A stretch of DNA of 64,000 nucleotides from an uncultured Verrucomicrobiae bacterium (GTDB taxonomy: Bacteria > Verrucomicrobiota > Verrucomicrobiia > Limisphaerales > Palsa-1400). Below are positions 42,333 to 64,000 of the stretch, piece by piece. The notes under the pieces are model-generated. The model worked only from the letters and a program-made list of their open reading frames with translations, was not told the DNA's origin and ran no database searches. The position numbers were made by a program, and so were the translations under genes. The stretch is from positions 1,472,001-1,536,000 of the forward strand of contig CAVXRD010000001.1 in the NCBI GenBank assembly GCA_963764165.1. The letters run 5' to 3'. Positions within the stretch are counted from its first letter, which is position 1; every line of letters starts with the position of its first letter.

Positions 42333-42807
42333 TCACGTCCACAATTGCCGGTCCAGGGATCGGTACTGGATGGCTTCCGAGACGTGTTCCGCTCCGACCG
42401 TTTCCGCGCCAGCCAGATCCGCGATGGTGCGGGCGACTTTTAGAATTCTATCATAAGCGCGCGCGCTCAAATTCAAATCCGCCATCGCGAACTTCAGCAA
42501 TTCCTTCGTCGATTCGTCAATGGCGCAAAATGCTTTCAGTTCCTTGCTGCCCATGCGCGCGTTGCAGGTGACGGAACGTTTGTTGGCGAAGCGGGCCTGC
42601 TGACGCTTGCGCGCCGCAACCACACGATTGCGAATGGTCGCCGAGTTTTCCCCAGTTTGCTCGGCGCTGATGTCGCGGAACTTCACTTCCGAAACTTCAA
42701 TGTGCAAATCAATGCGGTCAAGCAGCGGCCCGGAAATTCGACCGAGATAATTTTGAATTTCCCTTGGCGAACTGCGCGATTCGCCCGGCATTTTTCCATC
42801 GGGCGTG
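42333..42807 (-). pseudogene. comM: 3' fragment of comM/yifB (Mg-chelatase-like ATPase), interrupted by an integrated element
   Basis: Y.GRISGPLLDRIDLH, LSARAYDRILKVARTIADL, EAIQYR; homology stops where the AMNP motif is expected; Walker A region absent. Confidence 0.9.
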
Positions 42808-42822
42808 CGCCATGTTGCCTTT
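42802..42822. other. Putative att junction (comM half plus GTTGCCTTT element half)
   Basis: comM codons end at ~42807, 6 nt from GTTGCCTTT; same geometry as the palindromes at 43104-43132 and 59466-59495. Confidence 0.7.
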
Positions 42823-43324
42823 TTGTGAACGGACTGTGAGCGTCTCACGATCCAAGTATCTTCCGTCCATGAACAGAGGAATATCAATCCCAAAAGAGCC
42901 AAAGACAATCGGCGAATTTCTAAGAAAACGGCGATTGGAACTCGGCATATTTCAGTCGGAAGCGGCTCTCAAGCTGGGAGTTAGCACGGTCACCCTGAGC
43001 CGGTGGGAGTGCGGCAAGGTATATCCAACATGGCCTCAACAACCCTCCGTCACAGCCTATCTCGGCCACAATCCATTCACCGATCCGGCCCTCGGAAAGC
43101 CCAAAGGCAACGAATCCCAGCGCGTTGCCTTTTTAGGATCCGGCGAGTCTCAAAACCTTGGTCAACAGATCGTCAGCCATTGCCTTAAAATGAGGAAAAC
43201 GATCCGAAAGTTCGCTGAGGAGGCAGGGATAAGCTCCAAAACAATTTGGAATTGGAAGACGGGCCGAAGGCAGCCAAGCCGCGCCGCTCACAAGCGAATC
43301 GCTGAACTGTTGGCAGCGCAATAA
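42812..43324 (+). CDS. Tandem XRE helix-turn-helix protein
   Basis: IGEFLRKRRLELGIFQSEAA.KLGVS..TLSRWE and a second HTH (AEEAGISSKTIWNWKTGRRQP). Confidence 0.8.
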   Translation: MLPFCERTVSVSRSKYLPSMNRGISIPKEPKTIGEFLRKRRLELGIFQSEAALKLGVSTVTLSRWECGKVYPTWPQQPSVTAYLGHNPFTDPALGKPKGNESQRVAFLGSGESQNLGQQIVSHCLKMRKTIRKFAEEAGISSKTIWNWKTGRRQPSRAAHKRIAELLAAQ

Positions 43325-51027: not shown

Positions 51028-54000
51028 CTAATTTAATCTCAGGCTGGCCAGGACCTGCTCGATTTCCCGCAAACTCCAGATGGCGATGTCGCCGTTCTCG
51101 CGGGCCACGGCAAGGCGACGGCTGTCCAGACTCCAGGCCAATGCGTAGACCGTGCTATTTTCTTCCGGCAGGGAGTAAAGGTATTTGCCCGTTTTGGGAT
51201 CCCAGATTTCCACGCCGCGCACAGAACGCGTATCGAACGCGAGCAAGGAACCGTCGGGACTGAGGCAAAAGTTCCAGATCGACGCCGGCCACGCTCTAAT
51301 GTCTCCAATTGGAAATGAGGAAATGCATTTTTCCGTCGCCAGATCGAAGGTAGCCACCTCCACGTTGGTTCCAGTCGTGAACATCAACTGGCGGCTGTCC
51401 GGTGTGAAGCTGCAACATTGAACGCCCCACAGCACTCCGGGTCCGACCGAACGCGGTTGATCCGCCCGCTGAAAATCCCAAATGTAAATGCCGCTCCCCT
51501 CAAACACCACGAATTTTGCGTCCGGCGAAAACAACAGGCTGTTTCCGGATGCCGTTGCCGACTTGAAAAGCGTGGCTGAAATTTTTCCCTGCCTGTCGCC
51601 GGGCGAGCCGTGCTGGATCTCCCAAATCTTGGTTCCGCTGCGACCGGTTGCGGCAACGAAATGGCCGTCGGGACTGAACTGCGCCGCCCAGATTCGCCCG
51701 ACGCCGTTACCACGGAGTTCGAGAAGCCGCTCGCCAGTATGCGCGTCCCAAATCCAGATCAAATCCGTTTCCCAATCTCCGGTGACCAGCCATTGCCCAT
51801 CGGCGCTGTAGCCCACGCATTGGCCTGGGCCGGGAAGAGTGCCAGAATCCCACAGGATGTCGCCTTTTACAGCGTCGCTCACTCTTGCCACGCGATCCTT
51901 CCCCACCGACACAATGCGCGCGCCATCCGGACTGAAGGCAATGCTGGTCACAGCGTCGCTGTGGGAGTGCAGCGTCAATTTTTCGGGGGTTTCCAGCCTG
52001 TATACCCACGGGCGCCTGGCAGACAGTGTCACCAAAAACCTTGCATCAGGCGCGAAGGCAAGTGGCGAAGCATCTTCCGGCTCCTCCAAAAAAGCTATGT
52101 CCTCCTGGCGCGCCAGACTCCAGAGACGGATGCGCATTTGATGTCTGATTGGAACGGCGATGGTGTCATTGGCGATGGCTGCGCCCGATCGAAAAAACTC
52201 CTTAAGATCGCTGACTCGTTGGAAACCAGGGAGCGAGTAGACCGTCCCACCTGAAACTGAAAAATAAGAAAGATGCGTTCCGTCAGGACTGAATTCGAGA
52301 CTTCCCGAGCTCGCCAACTGGGTTTGTTGCCGTCCCACGCGCCGGCCGCTCTCCACTTCCCAAAGTTCTAAAACGGGCTTGTTCGTGTCAGTGGGATCCA
52401 CGTTTTGCACCGCCAGATACTGTCCGTCAGGACTTAGAGCCGCGCTCCGGACATTGGTCATTTCAATCCCTGGGACGAACGTCCGGGTCTGCAAATTAAA
52501 CAGCCTCAGCTTCGAGTCTGGATTAGCCGCGTGTTCTTGCAACGGCGAGATCGAGGTAACGATGGAGGCAAACATGCCTTTGGTGGAGGCCGACAGGTCG
52601 ATGGCCCCGGGCAACAGGCTATTTTCCGTTTGAGACCAGATTCCGTTGGTTCTGCGGTTCCAAATATAAAGCCGCACGGCGGGCTGCCCCTGTTTCCGTG
52701 TTCCTGGAATCGGCCCGTACAGCGCAAACAATTGATCGCCCGTAGAATTGAAGCTGAGACTTGCTGGATAGTTCGTGCCCGCCAGCCGGGCCACTTCCCT
52801 GCCCGATGGAATCTCCCGCAGCAGGATCGTGCCATTGGCCAGTGCAAACGCCCCTAATTTTCCAGACACATCGAGATCCGCCGAGGTGATATTCGAGTTC
52901 GTTGGAAAATCGTCAAATGTCGTCGGCATCAGCCCAACAAAATCGCCGAGGGCGGCTACGGCTTCGCGCCGCAAACCAGACGGGTCTTTTTGGGGAACTT
53001 GAAGATCGCGCGCCTCTTGAAGAAGTTTGAAAACTTTGTCGCGATAACCCATGCGCCGGGCCAGCCTCGTCTCGCGCGCCTGGCCAACGAGCGAATCGTA
53101 AAGTTCCCGGCGCGCCGACGCTTTTTGATCCGCTTCGCTCGCCTCCGCTTTCTGCGCGCGATAGTGAGCCTGACGTTCCCGCAAGAACATCCACGTCGAA
53201 ACTGCCAAGCCTGCGCCGAGCGCGGCGACGAACGTCGCAGCGACGACAAAAGCGACCTTGTTGCGGCGCATCATTTTTTGAAAGCGATAGCCCGAACTTG
53301 GCGGGCGGGCGATGACAGGCTCGTTGGCTAAATGGCGCTCGATGTCCATCGCCAATCCGTTGGCGGTTTCGTAACGACGCGTGCGGTCCTTTTCAAGGCA
53401 CTTCATCGCGATCCAATCAAGATCACCCTGCAATTGGTGAAGCAGCCTGGTCGTATCGGTGGATCTTCGCTTCGCTGTCGCGGTCAAATCATCGCCCTTG
53501 AGTGTTGAGAAACTCGTGCTTGGCCGCACTGGCTCTTGCTCTCGAATGGTTTTGCGCATCGCGTCCAGGCCCGCTGCGATGAGTTCCTTTCCATCGAATG
53601 GAGTTCGCCCGGCCAGAAGCTCGTAGAGCAAAACACCCAGGCTGTAAATGTCGCTGCGCGTATCAATATCCAGACCGCTCATCTCCGCCTGTTCCGGACT
53701 CATGTAGGCGGGCGTGCCCATGAACTGATGCAACTGCGTGTAAACTGTTTCCGCCGTCAGCCGGCCTTCCGTCGCCTTGGCGATGCCAAAATCAATGACC
53801 TTCGGCACCGGCACGCCGTCGTGAAGCGTGACCATGATGTTCGACGGCTTGATGTCGCGATGGATGATTCCCTTTTGGTGCGCGTGCTGGACGGCGTGGC
53901 AGACCTTGATCATCAAGTTCAACCGTTCCGTCGTGTTGAGTTGGTTCTGGTCGCAGTAATCGGTAATCTTAACGCCCCGCACCAATTCCATGACAAAAAA

Positions 54001-54479
54001 CGGCGGCCGGTCTCTGTGGCGGCGGCGTCGAAGACCTTGGCGATGTTGGGATGATCCATCATGGCCAGGGCCTGGCGCTCCGCTTCGAAACGCGCGACCA
54101 CCTGCCTGGTATCCATTCCCAGCTTGATGACTTTCAGGGCAACGCGGCGCCGCACTGGCTCGTTCTGCTGGGCGACGTAGACAACTCCGCAGCCACCTTC
54201 GCCTACTTTCTCCAGCAGCCTGTAGCGGCCGATCGTTTGGCCAACGGCCTCGTCATCCGGGTTGATCAGGCTGGATTTGGCCGATTCGCCACTAGGCCTT
54301 GGCGCAGGACTGTCAAAGAAATCGCCAGCCTCCTGATCAGCTTGAAGAAGCTCCTCCACTTGCTGGCGCAAGGAGGCGTCGCCAACGCACACTTCATCAA
54401 GGTACGCGGCGCGCTCATCGCCGGGCAACTTGCGCGCTGTATTGAAAACATCCGCTGCACGCGCGGGGGATTCTGGCAT
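51028..54479 (-). pseudogene. Ser/Thr protein kinase with TM and WD40 repeats, frameshifted at ~54,000
   Basis: GEGGCGVV and VALK in ORF 53919-54494; HRDIKPSN, DFG, GTPAYMSPEQ and WD40s in ORF 51028-53991. Confidence 0.88.
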
Positions 54480-54583
54480 AAATTCGCGTCCCACTATCCG
54501 TCCATGGTTGTGAGAAATCGAAGCAAATAGACCGTTCCAACATTCCTATGTTGTTGAACCAGCGGCATTCGCTCATCCATTAC

Positions 54584-58610: not shown

Positions 58611-59174
58611 TTTATTCCAGTAATTTTGACGAGTGTTATAAGGTGCTCTCCTACGCGGTCAGAAGAAACGGAATCATTCAGCCTCTCCCATCTCTTTCGA
58701 AATATCGGCGCAAGACGGCGATCCCGCAACCCCAAATTCGCATTGGAAACGTGTCCACTGCCGCGCTCGGGAGGGCCTCGCCATCGCACGAGGGAATACG
58801 GGCTCTCCGATTCAACCCATCGTAACAGACGTTGTAATGCCACATAGGGGTGGCCACTATGAGTGAACGCCATCGTCGCAATATGCCCGAACGTCAAAAC
58901 ACTGATTAGATCGGGCTACGCCGATGAAAACACAGCGCTTTTCATGTTCTCCCGCAAGGCCGTGCGTCCCTTCCAAAGCCTTATTTGTTAGTGGCTCTTA
59001 CGAACAAGGTTCGAGAAATGTTGGATCATTAAGACAGGCTCGATTGTTCACGGGTCGGCCACTCGATTATATTACACGCTCTCAACCCTGAACCTCTTTA
59101 ATATTGCGCGGTGTTTGAACTTGTCACATTGCCTTCTAAGTTCCTGGTCGTAAAGGTCTTACAGCTTGTGCGCG

Positions 59175-59681
59175 ATGTTGCCTTTTTGCGACCGCACTGT
59201 AAGCGTCGCCCGGAAGGATGTTGCACCCGTATGGACACGGAGTTTTCCAATTGCAAAGGAGCCTACAACCCTTGGCGAACACCTCAAGAAGAAACGGTTC
59301 TTGGCTGGCATCCGACAATCGGAAGCCGCTCTAAAACTGGGGGTTAGCGACAGAACCCTTAGCCTTTGGGAAACAGACCGGGTGTATCCGGCCTGGGCTT
59401 TCCAGCCCCGTCTAATCACTTACCTCGGATACGACCCATTCACCAACCCGGCGCTTGGAAATCCTAAAGGCAACGAAACATCGCGTGTTGCCTTTTTATC
59501 ACCCGATGCCCCCGCCACCACCGGTCAGAAAATCAAAAACCGCCGTTTTAAATTAAAGAAAACGAGGAAGCAATTGGCATCGGAACTAGGCGTTAGCGTC
59601 AAAACGCTGTGGAGCTGGGAAACAGATCGCCGGCAACCGACATCCCAAGGCCAAGAGCAGATTGCAAAGTTTCTTGAATGA
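59175..59681 (+). CDS. Tandem XRE HTH protein, paralog of 42812-43324
   Basis: MLPFCDRTVSV...LGEHLKKKR...QSEAALKLGVS; second HTH. Confidence 0.8.
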   Translation: MLPFCDRTVSVARKDVAPVWTRSFPIAKEPTTLGEHLKKKRFLAGIRQSEAALKLGVSDRTLSLWETDRVYPAWAFQPRLITYLGYDPFTNPALGNPKGNETSRVAFLSPDAPATTGQKIKNRRFKLKKTRKQLASELGVSVKTLWSWETDRRQPTSQGQEQIAKFLE

Positions 59682-60037
59682 GCGGATTACCGTTGGCGGC
59701 ACTGGGCCTGTTGGCTTCTTGCCACCGCACCATTCACCATGTTCACAGAACAACATCGCTCCATTTTAAGCAGTTGCGAAACTATCCAGCAAGCCCCAAG
59801 ACCCTTGGCGAGCACCTTCGCAAAAAGCGGATGGACCTCCACCTTTCCATGCCGCAACTTGCTGCAACGCTGGGACTTGGAATCACCGTCACCGAGATCG
59901 AGAAATGGGAAAAGAATCAGAATCGACCGACGAACGAACACCGCCATCAAATCGTTCAGTTCCTTGGGTTTGACCCGGCAACCACAAAAAACAGGCAGCT
60001 AATAGCGAGCCGCCTGTTGGGTATTGACCACCGATAA
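59678..60037 (+). CDS. XRE HTH protein
   Basis: YP..PKTLGEHLRKKRMDL...KWEKNQNRP. Confidence 0.7.
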   Translation: MSGLPLAALGLLASCHRTIHHVHRTTSLHFKQLRNYPASPKTLGEHLRKKRMDLHLSMPQLAATLGLGITVTEIEKWEKNQNRPTNEHRHQIVQFLGFDPATTKNRQLIASRLLGIDHR

Positions 60038-60491: not shown

Positions 60492-61451
60492 ATGGTACCA
60501 AGCTTATTGGAAACTTTTGCGCCGATCCTTAGAGCGACTCGTGAGGAAAAAGGCTGGGCGCAAGCCGAATTGGCCGAAAACAGTCGCGTCGCGCTACGAA
60601 CGATTATGAACCTTGAATCTCCAAAAGGGAATACAAAGGTCAGATTCGACGTCATCGTTAGATTGGCACATGCACTGAGCAAGCCTCAGACCGATTGGCT
60701 GAAGCACACGGGGCACTCCCAAATCCCCCAGACCCGAATTGACCAAGTATTGAAAAAAATGGGCGTAGTCGATTTCCACGGGGAGAAGGAACCAGTCCAT
60801 TTTTTTCAAAGCTTGGATGACAAGCTCCAAAAGGGGAGTCCTGTGATCGCCATCATTTGCTATCGAACATTTTCATCGTACACTCACCAAAAATTCTTTG
60901 CGACTAGCATAGCGCCGTTGCTCGACACAGGGAAACTGTTTCTCGCTCTTGTTTGCCCATATCCCAAAATCCAGGATATCGATCAAGTACAGAAGCAAAC
61001 TCTTTCAAGGATATATTCGCAAGTGAGAAGTGAAGTGATCGGAATCACCAAGGAAGTAAAGACCGTGATGAGAAATCCGCAATTCAGAAATCACATGGCG
61101 GCGTTCTCTTTAAATGCGAAGCTCGACAACGCGGTGCCTCCAACGCTCGGACTCTCGGAGTTCCGGCCCATACTGGTGCAATCATTTGTAGAATATTCGC
61201 CAACAAACAAGAAGCCAGAGTATGAATTGACCGGTTGGCTAACGTTCCTACAAGATCACAAGGAACGCTGGATACATATTTTTCCTGCACCGCCGAAACT
61301 CACATCTCAACAAGACGCCCATCGTAAAATATGCGATGCTTGGAAGGAATATTTTCAAGAGATCCTTGATAACTGTAACTATGAAAACGAAGGTTGGATG
61401 AAAGACTCACAGCATTGGGGCATTTGGGATATGGCGGACATTATGATATAA
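60492..61451 (+). CDS. XRE HTH regulator with a large unrecognised C-terminal domain
   Basis: LRATREEKGWAQAELAENSRVALRTIMNLE; ~240-aa C-terminal region. Confidence 0.8.
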   Translation: MVPSLLETFAPILRATREEKGWAQAELAENSRVALRTIMNLESPKGNTKVRFDVIVRLAHALSKPQTDWLKHTGHSQIPQTRIDQVLKKMGVVDFHGEKEPVHFFQSLDDKLQKGSPVIAIICYRTFSSYTHQKFFATSIAPLLDTGKLFLALVCPYPKIQDIDQVQKQTLSRIYSQVRSEVIGITKEVKTVMRNPQFRNHMAAFSLNAKLDNAVPPTLGLSEFRPILVQSFVEYSPTNKKPEYELTGWLTFLQDHKERWIHIFPAPPKLTSQQDAHRKICDAWKEYFQEILDNCNYENEGWMKDSQHWGIWDMADIMI

Positions 61452-61517
61452 TGCTAGCGATGCCACGGTCGATCTCTAAGATGAGGTTGATCAACAATTT
61501 AATATCTGCTTGATGAT

Positions 61518-62300
61518 ATGAGAGACATTTGCGACAATGCTGAGTCACCTAGCTACGTGTCACTACCAGTGATTAAAGCAAACACATTGGTCCCCAAAAG
61601 CAGAGCACAGCAACGACGTGAATCCTCCTTGCACCCCCCTGCTCGCCCCCTTGAACCGGATTTCAAGATAAGAGCGCGCTCGATTCTCGTGACTGGAACA
61701 GATCTGGTAGGCAAAACGACTCTAATAAATCGACTTGTCCCGCATCTAAGAAACAGTGGCTTTAAAATCACTCCAAACAAGCACGACCTTCACAAAACGG
61801 CATTGATGCCTAGTATTCATACTCTGCTAGAGGCTGCTTCGCCGGAAGACCTCCTGCAGATAAACAGCCTCTTCTTTGTGACTTTCCTCATCGACTCAAT
61901 GAAATTCAATCCGGAGCCTGACGCTATCATCATTCAAGACTCTTACGTCTGTCGCACTATGGCATTCTCCTTGGCTTATAATTTAACTCCTATCACTGAT
62001 CTCTTTGAAGCATTTAGGCATCACTTCTTCTCTTTTGATGTAACAATTCACCTGACCGCAACGATCGAAGCGAGAAAGCAGCGACTGTCAGTTAGAGGCA
62101 ATTCCAATTCTCAAGATCACTTGATCATTACTGATCCAGCGAAGGTGTCACTAATGGATCACCACCTAAGCAACATAGTCAAAACCCATAAGGAGTATCT
62201 TCAGCTCGACACGTCGGAGTTGACAATCCCCCAGGTATTTGAGACGGTTACTAAGTACCTATGCGAGGACATCTCACCGCTCCTGGGAATCGAAGTTTAA
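61518..62300 (+). CDS. Thymidylate-kinase-like nucleoside monophosphate kinase
   Basis: P-loop ILVTGTDLVGKTT, IIQDSY (DRY-like), DVTIHL.A..E.RKQRL..R lid, LDTS. Confidence 0.8.
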   Translation: MRDICDNAESPSYVSLPVIKANTLVPKSRAQQRRESSLHPPARPLEPDFKIRARSILVTGTDLVGKTTLINRLVPHLRNSGFKITPNKHDLHKTALMPSIHTLLEAASPEDLLQINSLFFVTFLIDSMKFNPEPDAIIIQDSYVCRTMAFSLAYNLTPITDLFEAFRHHFFSFDVTIHLTATIEARKQRLSVRGNSNSQDHLIITDPAKVSLMDHHLSNIVKTHKEYLQLDTSELTIPQVFETVTKYLCEDISPLLGIEV

Positions 62301-62313
62301 GCCATAATCTCAT

Positions 62314-63963
62314 ATGAAGCCTACTCTTCGATCGCCGCCGGTAATCTTGCCATTTTGTCGCACGCTTCTATCCCAATCTGGAGCGTCTCTGACAATGTCA
62401 TCGATAGCGAGTTATTTGGAAATGCACGGATACGAGGCGGACTTGCAGTTTATCGAGAGAGATAATACAGAAAGTATTCCACGCTTTCTAGCTCATCTAA
62501 ACGGATTGGCCAACCCGCTGGTAATTGCAAAAATCAATTTTCAAGATCAGTCGGTTATGTTGTCGCTGCTTAAGCACTTGAAGGAACTCAAAAGGGTGGC
62601 GAAAGTGGCTTTATGCGGCCCATTTGCCGCCCAACATTATCTCTCCATCATGGCGGCTAACCCATTCGTAGATGCAATATTGGTCGGTCAACCTGAGGTC
62701 GCTGCTCTTGATTTTGTTCAGTCTGAGTCGAATACCAACCAGGGCGGCACAACATATTCCTTCGCCCGAAGAGATCATGTCCAGACTGATATGATCGTTG
62801 CTCCCGTTGTTGGACGCACTGTCGCGCTTGAGAATCTACCGCATCCAAAACGATCCGTGGAAATTGAGGAAACTACTCCTCACGTTAATCTGGAAGCCTC
62901 TCGCGGATGCACGTTCGGCTGCAGTTTCTGTCACCTCAGTAAAACAGCAATCAGTTACAGATCACCAGCCTCTGTAATCGAAGAGATTGCTTATCTGAAC
63001 AGGTCTTTAGGCAAATCGCTTTTCATTTTTAACGACAGTTGCTTTTGGGCAAGCTCAGAGGATGATGCACGCATTATGGCGATCGCCAACGGCATTCTCG
63101 CCAAGTCGCTTGATGTCCGCTTATACGTTTACCTTAGAGTAAGGCCGCTTATCTCAAAGCCCATTTTAGGCGCCCTAGTTGAGGCTGGGCTGGTGAGGGT
63201 GTTTTTGGGAGTCGAGTCAGCTGTAAAACGAATCAAACGCGATTTCCATAAGCCCTCAGATGATGTGGACTTTGGAAAGGCGCGAAGTCTCTTCGAGAGA
63301 GATTTTAATCTGAATGTCCATATCGGTTTTATTACCGTCGAACCTCATTCCACTATTGTGGAAGTCGAACTCAATATCGATTATCTGATGGATATTGAGA
63401 AGTTGTTTAGAATAGGCATCATAACGGAACCGATGCGAGCTATACCTGGCACCGAAAGCTTTAATCGGCTTCTTGAAAGAGGCTTAATGCCAGATGGTTT
63501 GAACTATACCGCTATCACTTATGGTTATCGGTTTCAACATCAAGAAACTTTTGTTTTTTTGCGTGAGATGCAACAATTGTTTAGGATGACGCTTAGACAA
63601 GAGGCCTACAAATTCGAGTATTTTTCCACGGTTGTTGGGTTGCTTAAATCGCTTTCGATTCGCTTGCTCGGCTCCCTGCCTGCTCACATAGATATTCAAT
63701 TCCAGACAGTTTTACGATTGCGCGGCGAGGGTATGGTTATGCTTTACCATCATATGAAACATCAAATTCAATACCTAAAGCACAATCCACAGTGCTCCGA
63801 AATACCAAAAGGACAAAGCTATGCGGATTTTGTATTTAACTTCAAGCGAACCTCCTTGGAATTGGAACTCGCTTATGGCTCCTTAGTCGCGCTTTTGCAA
63901 GGAACTGGTGCCGGAAGGGCGGTTCGGGAAGTTTATTCTGGTATGGAAAGGATTCGTGGTTGA
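62314..63963 (+). CDS. B12-binding-domain radical SAM enzyme
   Basis: N-terminal SIASYL..G, CGPFA, VDAILVGQPE; SRGCTFGCSFC; LGVES; PGT. Confidence 0.9.
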   Translation: MKPTLRSPPVILPFCRTLLSQSGASLTMSSIASYLEMHGYEADLQFIERDNTESIPRFLAHLNGLANPLVIAKINFQDQSVMLSLLKHLKELKRVAKVALCGPFAAQHYLSIMAANPFVDAILVGQPEVAALDFVQSESNTNQGGTTYSFARRDHVQTDMIVAPVVGRTVALENLPHPKRSVEIEETTPHVNLEASRGCTFGCSFCHLSKTAISYRSPASVIEEIAYLNRSLGKSLFIFNDSCFWASSEDDARIMAIANGILAKSLDVRLYVYLRVRPLISKPILGALVEAGLVRVFLGVESAVKRIKRDFHKPSDDVDFGKARSLFERDFNLNVHIGFITVEPHSTIVEVELNIDYLMDIEKLFRIGIITEPMRAIPGTESFNRLLERGLMPDGLNYTAITYGYRFQHQETFVFLREMQQLFRMTLRQEAYKFEYFSTVVGLLKSLSIRLLGSLPAHIDIQFQTVLRLRGEGMVMLYHHMKHQIQYLKHNPQCSEIPKGQSYADFVFNFKRTSLELELAYGSLVALLQGTGAGRAVREVYSGMERIRG

Positions 63964-64000
63964 TCACCCTTTAATCATCAGTGTCGACGGGAATGTGAAT
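63956..64000 (+). CDS. Start of a probable deoxynucleoside-kinase-like P-loop protein (partial)
   Basis: GTG start overlapping the radical SAM stop, GAAAGGA upstream; MVDHPLIISVDGNVN resembles IISIEGNIGxGK. Confidence 0.5.
   Translation, partial: MVDHPLIISVDGNVN

Follow-up and report, generated by a model that had tools for sequence, protein, structure and literature searches.

Analysis of a 64,000 bp stretch of the genome of an uncultured Verrucomicrobiae bacterium (assembly GCA_963764165.1, contig CAVXRD010000001.1, G000:C1:1472001-1536000; termed the window), with reading continued into the sequence past the window end, revealed a conserved, horizontally acquired gene cassette from 61518 to 66622 that combines a B12-type radical S-adenosylmethionine (rSAM) enzyme with two kinases, a relative of the C-glycoside synthase ForT, and two Nudix enzymes. 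All conserved parts handle a nucleoside, nucleotide, or activated sugar. The leading explanation, tentative and judged somewhat short of even, is that the cassette would build a C-nucleotide and then remodel its sugar ring to give a nucleotide-analog antimetabolite; taken jointly with an alternative in which ordinary nucleotides are the substrate, the product is probably a nucleotide analog of some kind. A first-pass annotation, made from the window sequence, had suggested a modified-nucleotide pathway built from an XRE-type regulator, a deoxynucleotide kinase, the rSAM, and a second nucleoside kinase. Such a pathway is still the best reading of the genes and the kinase-rSAM core was retained, while the regulator was removed and the ForT-like and Nudix genes were added from beyond the window.

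Organization of the cassette

Coordinates are given in window numbering, extended past 64000 (G000:C1 coordinate = window + 1,472,000; L001 coordinate = window - 58,000). The plus strand encodes an XRE-type helix-turn-helix (HTH) protein (60492-61451; 319 aa, N-terminal HTH, Pfam matches below cut-off), a thymidylate/cytidylate kinase (TMK/CMK)-like P-loop protein of the nucleoside monophosphate (NMP)-kinase fold (61518-62300; 260 aa as called), the B12-type (class I) rSAM used as cassette marker (62314-63963; 549 aa, CxxxCxxC at C199/C203/C206), and a deoxynucleoside kinase (dNK)-family protein (63956-64594, with the first 45 bases in the window; 212 aa, GTG start, reading IISVDGNV). Extension of the contig, proposed in the annotation, showed that the operon runs past 64000 with three more genes: a ForT/RFA-P-synthase-family gene on the plus strand, 1 bp after the dNK-like gene (64596-65540; 314 aa, TIGR00144 above cut-off), Nudix 1, also on the plus strand (65567-66022; Pfam 3e-10), and a convergent Nudix 2 on the minus strand (66110-66622; Pfam 1e-12). 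The four co-oriented genes described initially were confirmed, with intergenic spacings of exactly 66 bp and 13 bp, then an overlap of 8 bp, and the AT-rich block was evident from a GC content of 45.8% vs. 56.2% for window positions 1-42300, with 2 of 1164 genome-wide 6-kb windows as low or lower. Homologs of the TMK-like protein are approximately 200-220 aa, and its true start is therefore probably about 50 codons downstream of the called one. Promoter and terminator scans were at chance level (9 vs. 8.5 expected; 7 vs. 7.2 expected), and a single 10/12 site was identified directly upstream of the TMK-like gene. The XRE-type gene, initially taken as a system component, had no homolog in the other 59 family loci listed and was rejected as a cassette member, being a neighbor only; its C-terminal part gave only Atlas leads below 0.9.

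Conservation across family loci

At least 60 loci of the rSAM family were collected, including that of the window, at least 25 from GTDB genomes, and at least 34 from metagenomes. The 60 loci formed 43 groups at 85% identity, of which the 27 flanked by 3 kb or more in each direction were counted for genes within 7 kb of the rSAM and 16 short ones were left out. The dNK-like gene was present in 27/27 loci. A membrane family 2 glycosyltransferase (GT2) with a QxxxW motif and long hydrophobic segments was identified in 25/27 loci and the ForT-like gene in the other two, the two being mutually exclusive. Nudix genes occurred in 25/27 loci, often on the opposite strand, and a twitch rSAM closest to BtrN (E 2e-23) in 24/27; the latter was in neither ForT-type locus and lay just outside 7 kb in L025. 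TMK-like (11/27) and nucleoside diphosphate kinase (NDK)-like (9/27) genes were mutually exclusive and together covered 20/27 loci, and a SAM methyltransferase was found in 8/27. None of 61 distant B12-rSAM loci (at least 10 kb) matched the dNK, TMK, GT2, or RFAP profiles at 40 bits and five matched the twitch-rSAM profile; the profiles were family-built, so that these controls show co-inheritance rather than absence of all kinases. The kinase-rSAM synteny whose absence elsewhere would have counted against the initial proposal is thus conserved across phyla, the hosts among the loci listed including Patescibacteria, archaea, gut Bacillota, Paenibacillus, and one Bacteroidota.

Some loci carry further genes. 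A Zn alcohol dehydrogenase directly follows the rSAM in two non-redundant GT2-type loci (L014:11634-12662 and L091:4075-5106). The additions in expanded variants (L016, L025, L098/L099, L103, L106, and L111) are a further dNK-like kinase, in one case as a fusion with a BpsA-like domain, and NTP_transf_5 nucleotidyltransferases as well as TruD-like, GDSL, and 310-360-aa genes.

The rSAM family

A homolog search with the rSAM retrieved 77 proteins at E <1e-50, mostly full length, followed by a gap, and in a profile search of 1.8 billion representatives the drop was less marked (271 to 237 bits); by these sequence comparisons the rSAM defines a small, discrete family. The CxxxCxxC motif (C199/C203/C206) was invariant in 72/72 members, with a partial barrel and PF04055 above cut-off. 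Family-invariant residues were KxN, CxxxCxxCH, ND, Arg253, Arg295, His336, Arg366, Arg375, and Glu435, and those that were checked are mostly missing from 101 outgroup B12-rSAMs. The invariant Arg253, Arg295, Arg366, and Arg375 would fit a phosphorylated substrate.

The AlphaFold model (pLDDT 92) contains Rossmann, partial-barrel, and helical-bundle domains. The analogy with OxsB of the oxetanocin pathway, drawn in the annotation, was borne out by the family profile, for which OxsB was the top PDB match (79.8 bits; next structure 39), and by fold, for which it was the top Foldseek match of the model (E 3e-22, TM 0.65). In VIA, the model aligned to OxsB 109-718 with a Z of 24.0 over 498 residues, tied with AprD4 (Z 23.4 over 409). 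The N-terminal part aligned to methionine synthase (Z 12.2) and AerR (Z 11.5), consistent with the fold of a Rossmann cobalamin domain. The label of cobalamin-binding rSAM rests on the fold, as the Pfam B12-binding family gave no match in the window rSAM and was listed for one of its 77 close relatives; six B12-binding matches above cut-off were identified in the host genome. An Atlas search with the rSAM returned only generic B12-rSAM clusters. Separately, an Atlas cluster comprising 65 radical SAM proteins of 508 aa from viruses scored 0.97 by features against it.

The residue below the cobalt bears on the type of chemistry. Asn186 occupies this place in OxsB and a hydrophobic residue does so in radical methylases, as described in two reviews (PMC13331322, PMC12931638). 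In the profile alignment, Asn186 corresponds to Asn75 of the window rSAM, directly after model strand 69-73, and Asn is kept in 71/72 members, which argues against a methylase. As to the grouping with lipid or peptide methylases named in the annotation as potential counter-evidence, the rSAM reached no NCBIfam methylase cut-off. The rSAM is quite likely not a methylase.

The ForT-like protein

The ForT-like protein exceeded the subfamily model TIGR00144 (160.5 bits, cut-off 113.5) and fell short of the methanopterin equivalog NF040726 (162 bits, cut-off 328), and its PDB matches were to ForT only. Residue roles were mapped from descriptions of ForT (PMC8183095, PMC9832568). Equivalents of ForT Arg19, Arg33, His99, Thr106, Thr138, Ser139, Glu211, and Lys263 were retained, with the pyrophosphate loop from His86 to Thr93 corresponding to ForT His99 to Thr106. 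ForT Ser21 is replaced by His, as in ordinary RFA-P synthases, and Gln266 by Glu; His12 and Arg24 of the ForT-like protein are as in RFA-P synthases. The main departure concerns ForT Arg135, described as a clamp on the 5'-phosphate of phosphoribosyl pyrophosphate (PRPP) that is essential for PRPP binding (PMC8183095), the equivalent of which is Leu/Ile in 8/8 subfamily members and Arg in 8/8 outgroup members. By sequence, the pyrophosphate and acceptor sites look intact and the 5'-phosphate clamp looks changed, and a changed clamp would explain the need for a nucleoside kinase. Neither an Mch match nor a second ForT/RFA-P-family member was identified in the 97%-complete host genome.

The kinases

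The second nucleoside kinase, proposed from the IISVDGNV reading, was confirmed by Pfam dNK (37 bits, cut-off 27). Its pocket was mapped by profile alignment to 2JAQ with column counts, and the positions presumably match human deoxycytidine kinase (dCK) numbering. In the family, the P-loop is kept, the catalytic Glu39 and the DRS motif are invariant (23/23), and the base-binding Gln/His is kept. Glu/Asp (23/23) stands in place of the base-pocket Arg of the Mycoplasma deoxyadenosine kinase (dAK), and a hydrophobic residue occupies the base-pocket Asp position; there is an invariant Thr and no conserved lid Glu, with the canonical lid Glu/Tyr missing in a lid alignment that is approximate. The roles of these positions were taken from accounts of human dCK (PMC1802566, PMC11053780). 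The top fold matches of the model were Giardia dAK and then the albomycin kinase AbmG, among many similar-scoring kinases. The non-canonical dNK pocket and the loss of Arg135 in the ForT-like protein together point to an unusual nucleoside.

For the other kinase, initially described as having a thymidylate-kinase fold, the NMP-kinase fold was upheld and identity as a dTMP kinase was not (TIGR00041 27.1 vs. 83.25 bits). Its Pfam Thymidylate_kin match (1.9e-4) was below cut-off, QDSY replaces the DR motif, and the family profile matches adenylate, cytidylate, and thymidylate kinases.

Proposed pathway

The favored pathway would begin with the ForT/RFA-P-synthase relative, which would join an activated pentose with an aromatic acid drawn from the metabolism of the host, for which 4-amino- or 4-hydroxybenzoate (the RFA-P/RHP-synthase substrates) would be the default guess, with a donor or product that is not gripped by the usual 5'-phosphate clamp. 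The dNK-like kinase would phosphorylate the primary hydroxyl, or perform a cryptic phosphorylation in the manner of AbmG, and the TMK-like kinase would carry the product to the diphosphate. The OxsB-like rSAM may then abstract a sugar hydrogen atom and rearrange, contract, or dehydrate the ring without methylation. Finally, hydrolysis of the analog triphosphate by the Nudix enzymes would serve to protect the producer or to release the product. A working system with the closest logic is thmABC, in which an rSAM, an AbmG-like nucleoside kinase, and an NTPase yield 4'-thiothymidine and the NTPase confers resistance (PMC12691670). For ring contraction, only two oxetane nucleosides and their B12 ring-contracting enzymes are characterized (PMC13331322), and albucidin is described as requiring AlsB and a second rSAM (PMC7074753).

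By pairing an OxsB-like enzyme with a relative of C-glycoside synthases, such a compact, soluble cassette of five to six genes would open up new radical reactions on the sugars of nucleotides and possibly yield a new antiviral or antibacterial scaffold. The product is possibly an antiviral or antibacterial poison. The ForT-type cassette also lends itself more readily to testing than the membrane-GT2 form, although the latter is more frequent.

Several observations weigh against the C-nucleotide pathway. The cassette encodes no base-synthesis genes, the loss of Arg135 could also mean an altered or lost reaction, the ForT-type form was directly read in only two loci with two more placed indirectly, and in 25/27 loci the slot is held by a membrane GT2. 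Membrane GT2s more usually serve lipids or glycans. The rSAM is only 14-15% identical to OxsB, and against the family profile OxsB reaches 80 bits, compared with about 200 bits for approximately 100 uncharacterized B12-rSAMs. AprD4, tied with OxsB by Z, is separated from the B12 enzymes in a 2026 review (PMC12931638). Finally, no Pfam B12-binding match was found in two of the five cassette genomes tested (L004 and L007; 0.8-1.0 Mb), raising the question of whether the rSAM needs cobalamin or obtains it from a host cell. The cassette is also a way to approach why Patescibacteria and archaea of ultra-small size retain a pathway that is costly in Fe-S and possibly in B12.

Alternative functions

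The strongest alternative, although unlikely, follows the logic of oxetanocin and viperin: the kinases and Nudix enzymes would supply the rSAM with a (d)NMP/(d)NTP of the host, which the rSAM would turn into a ring-contracted or dehydrated chain terminator, and the ForT-like enzyme or GT2 would act last by capping or masking the product. This would require no new base and would agree with OxsB and AlsB, which are described as using dAMP/dADP/dATP and needing a partner protein (PMC13331322). The TMK-like protein also weakly matches VakA and PDC-M51B in PADLOC, and the Zn alcohol dehydrogenase of two GT2 loci matches the aldehyde reduction of oxetanocin. However, the dNK pocket departs from canonical kinases in both base and sugar contacts, no OxsA-like HD protein was identified among the conserved neighbors, and ForT-family enzymes are known for building scaffolds rather than capping them (PMC8183095, PMC9832568).

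Quite unlikely is a role in envelope or cofactor tailoring, in which the ancestral cassette would produce a sugar with a modified ring, carried by a lipid or a surface glycan, the kinases and Nudix enzymes would merely recycle nucleotides, and the form in the window would make a cofactor-like aryl riboside. Hopanoid HpnI/HpnJ offers a likeness for the combination of membrane GT2, BtrN-like twitch rSAM, and B12 rSAM. The prevalence of the membrane GT2 with its QxxxW motif and long hydrophobic segments, the closeness of the twitch rSAM to BtrN, and the commonness of the cassette in Patescibacteria and archaea, mostly without defense neighbors, are consistent with this role, and an NDK is a natural partner of NDP-releasing GT2s. 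Nevertheless, the form in the window has no membrane enzyme, and the sole invariant partner is a nucleoside kinase with an intact catalytic base for the 5'-OH, for which NDP recycling has no need.

A class B methylase yielding a methylated nucleotide, such as a DNA-modification precursor, is improbable. Class B rSAMs are mostly methylases, with weak NCBIfam matches to several of them in the window rSAM, and two GT2 loci (L009 and L099) lie beside type I restriction-modification (RM) systems. The lower-axial Asn is hydrophilic, however, every methylase model was far below cut-off, no relative was found in viral contigs or phage records, and the conserved partners include no DNA-acting gene. A true RFA-P synthase with a pterin-modifying rSAM in methanopterin-type cofactor biosynthesis, suggested by TIGR00144 and by His12 and Arg24, was rejected as highly improbable because of the NF040726 score (162 vs. 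328 bits) and the missing Mch match, with the lost Arg135 and the location of the only family member of the genome among nucleotide enzymes also against it.

Comparison with known systems

The rSAM shares its class (B12-type, class I), its Rossmann, barrel, and helical-bundle domains, and the lower-axial Asn with OxsB of oxetanocin A (OxsB/OxsA) and AlsB of albucidin (AlsB/AlsA), with barrel Glu/Lys aligned, and is predicted to share their non-methylating sugar-ring chemistry. It is shorter (549 aa vs. 744 aa in OxsB) and lacks most of the extra N-terminal domain of OxsB, with the alignment beginning at residue 109-138. Neither partner, OxsA (HD) or AlsA (a second rSAM), is among the seven genes of the window cluster, and GT2-type loci have the BtrN-like rSAM instead; conversely, two kinases, Nudix enzymes, and an enzyme for glycosyl transfer are extra in the cassette. 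The ForT-like protein resembles ForT, PyfQ (formycin/pyrazofurin), and MptG in its GHMP fold, its pyrophosphate loop, and the majority of the residues at the acceptor site, but differs in the lost Arg135 equivalent (8/8) and in being paired with a B12-type rSAM, with no pyrazole or methanopterin pathway genes near the cassette.

The thmABC system and albomycin AbmM/AbmG share with the cassette a logic of rSAM, dNK-family kinase, and NTP hydrolase for a sugar-modified nucleoside; the cassette differs in that its rSAM is B12-type and in having a C-glycoside synthase and an NMP kinase in addition. Prokaryotic viperins with their kinase (pVip/VakA) and CMPK2 share the logic of an rSAM beside an NMP-kinase-fold gene in defense-type cargo, including the weak VakA match, although the rSAM of pVip is of another class. 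The annotation had recognized no named system, and this was sustained: pVip was unmatched and rejected, PDC-M51A being the sole PADLOC match of the rSAM at an E of 0.01 or less, and membership in the candidate rSAM-kinase system PDC-M51, which has two genes only, was rejected on scores that are weak and partial (rSAM 33.5 bits over profile positions 20-204 of 420; TMK-like protein 27 bits). Among ten relatives, PDC-M51 scores were partial and at superfamily level in six and absent in four; the main text of the PDC paper does not mention M51. A full-text literature search, which misses most subscription journals and bioRxiv supplements, returned no description of the rSAM family or cassette. 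The enzyme family and its pairing with a C-glycoside-synthase relative appear new, with a pathway logic of a known kind.

Evolution of the ForT-type form

In the form found in the window, the ForT-like gene takes the place of the GT2 and twitch rSAM. This form was read directly in two loci, the window and L003/L083, the latter being a Prolixibacteraceae conjugative element with MobB above cut-off and PDC-S02 and SpbK-like neighbors; we infer two further loci, P0003/P0231/P0087 (46,254 bp) and P0230/P0085 (3,512 bp), from contigs of equal length that bear homologs of the rSAM, dNK-like, and ForT-like proteins. In three trees, three ForT-type rSAMs formed a long-branched clade (support 100) inside a Patescibacteria-rich GT2-type clade. 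The AU test was borderline (p 0.046 with LG+G4; p 0.069 with a mixture model), and derivation of the ForT form from the GT2 form is, on sequence evidence, favored and not shown. Vertical inheritance was rejected, as the rSAM was found in none of 40 related genomes searched. A phage origin was also rejected, with no relative of the rSAM or ForT-like protein in viral contigs and none in phage records, and plasmids gave distant matches only.

The Nudix protein of the second ForT-type locus (L003:8520-9263), for which Pfam gave NUDIX only, is extended at its N-terminus by about 110 aa. By motif, this extension presumably resembles small inorganic pyrophosphatases and would suit a pyrophosphate-releasing ForT-type reaction.

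Linkage to defense genes

Both ForT-type contexts (2/2) are mobile elements with defense-like cargo. Among GT2-type loci, the scan covered 14 of 24 loci with 137 of the 253 ORFs that flank the cassettes, at E up to 1e-15 and leaving out 11 further ORFs of L016 and L025 that are mostly cassette accessories. Defense-type matches were identified in 3/14 loci scanned (L009, L013, and L014) and generic ATPase, reverse transcriptase, or desulfurase matches in 4/14; type I RM systems adjoin L009 and L099. The linkage to defense is suggestive only, and an anti-phage role is possible but doubtful. The specific anti-phage version, in which an aryl C-nucleoside made by the ForT-like enzyme out of metabolites of the host would be activated by the kinases and ring-contracted by the B12 rSAM into a chain terminator, is decidedly unlikely. 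If true, this would be a first among natural nucleotide chain terminators, being both C-linked and ring-contracted, and a C-glycoside synthase would have taken over from a membrane GT2 as supplier of the scaffold.

The comM island and its other cargo

The integration of the island in comM, noted in the annotation, was verified: comM is split at approximately 42,800 and 102,050, delimiting an island of 59 kb. The comM 3' half (42333-42800) and the left end of the island lie at 42333-42830 on the minus strand, with an att arm at approximately 42814-42825, and the comM 5' half (TIGR00368, 468 bits) ends near 102,050, beyond the window, where it adjoins a large serine recombinase (100575-102077) at the right end. 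A 12-bp inverted arm is present at both island ends. A second att-like arm (approximately 59177-59188) with an HTH gene pair (59166-60037, plus strand) marks an inner element end 1.3 kb upstream of the cluster; it is not flanked by comM, and its region has 70% DNA identity to 42805-43135 with an identical 12-bp arm. With a second serine recombinase at 68287-70200, this second arm suggests that the island consists of nested or tandem serine-recombinase elements. The related left-end region spans 42764-43324, and partial copies are also present on C2 (903.5 kb and 2126 kb) and C4 (732.6 kb).

Further island cargo includes a PDC-M48B match (2e-86), a type I RM system, and a Ppl match (2e-35). The PDC-M48B match is a metallo-beta-lactamase-fold gene with a 257-aa neighbor (L001:14233-16096) and the Ppl match a Ppl-like PHP-ATPase (L002:1842-4589); a lone proteasome-subunit-family gene (L002:15933-17006) was also recorded. 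Where the island has the cassette, a sibling element on contig C4 of the same genome (L165:4983-10229) has E1-E2 and JAB genes, together with an 839-aa protein that had no PADLOC or NCBIfam match. Within the window, a Ser/Thr kinase-WD40-like gene lies beside an ECF-sigma-like gene at 51028-54494 (labels from sequence reading); the former appears to be split into two overlapping ORFs near 53950, probably by a frameshift.

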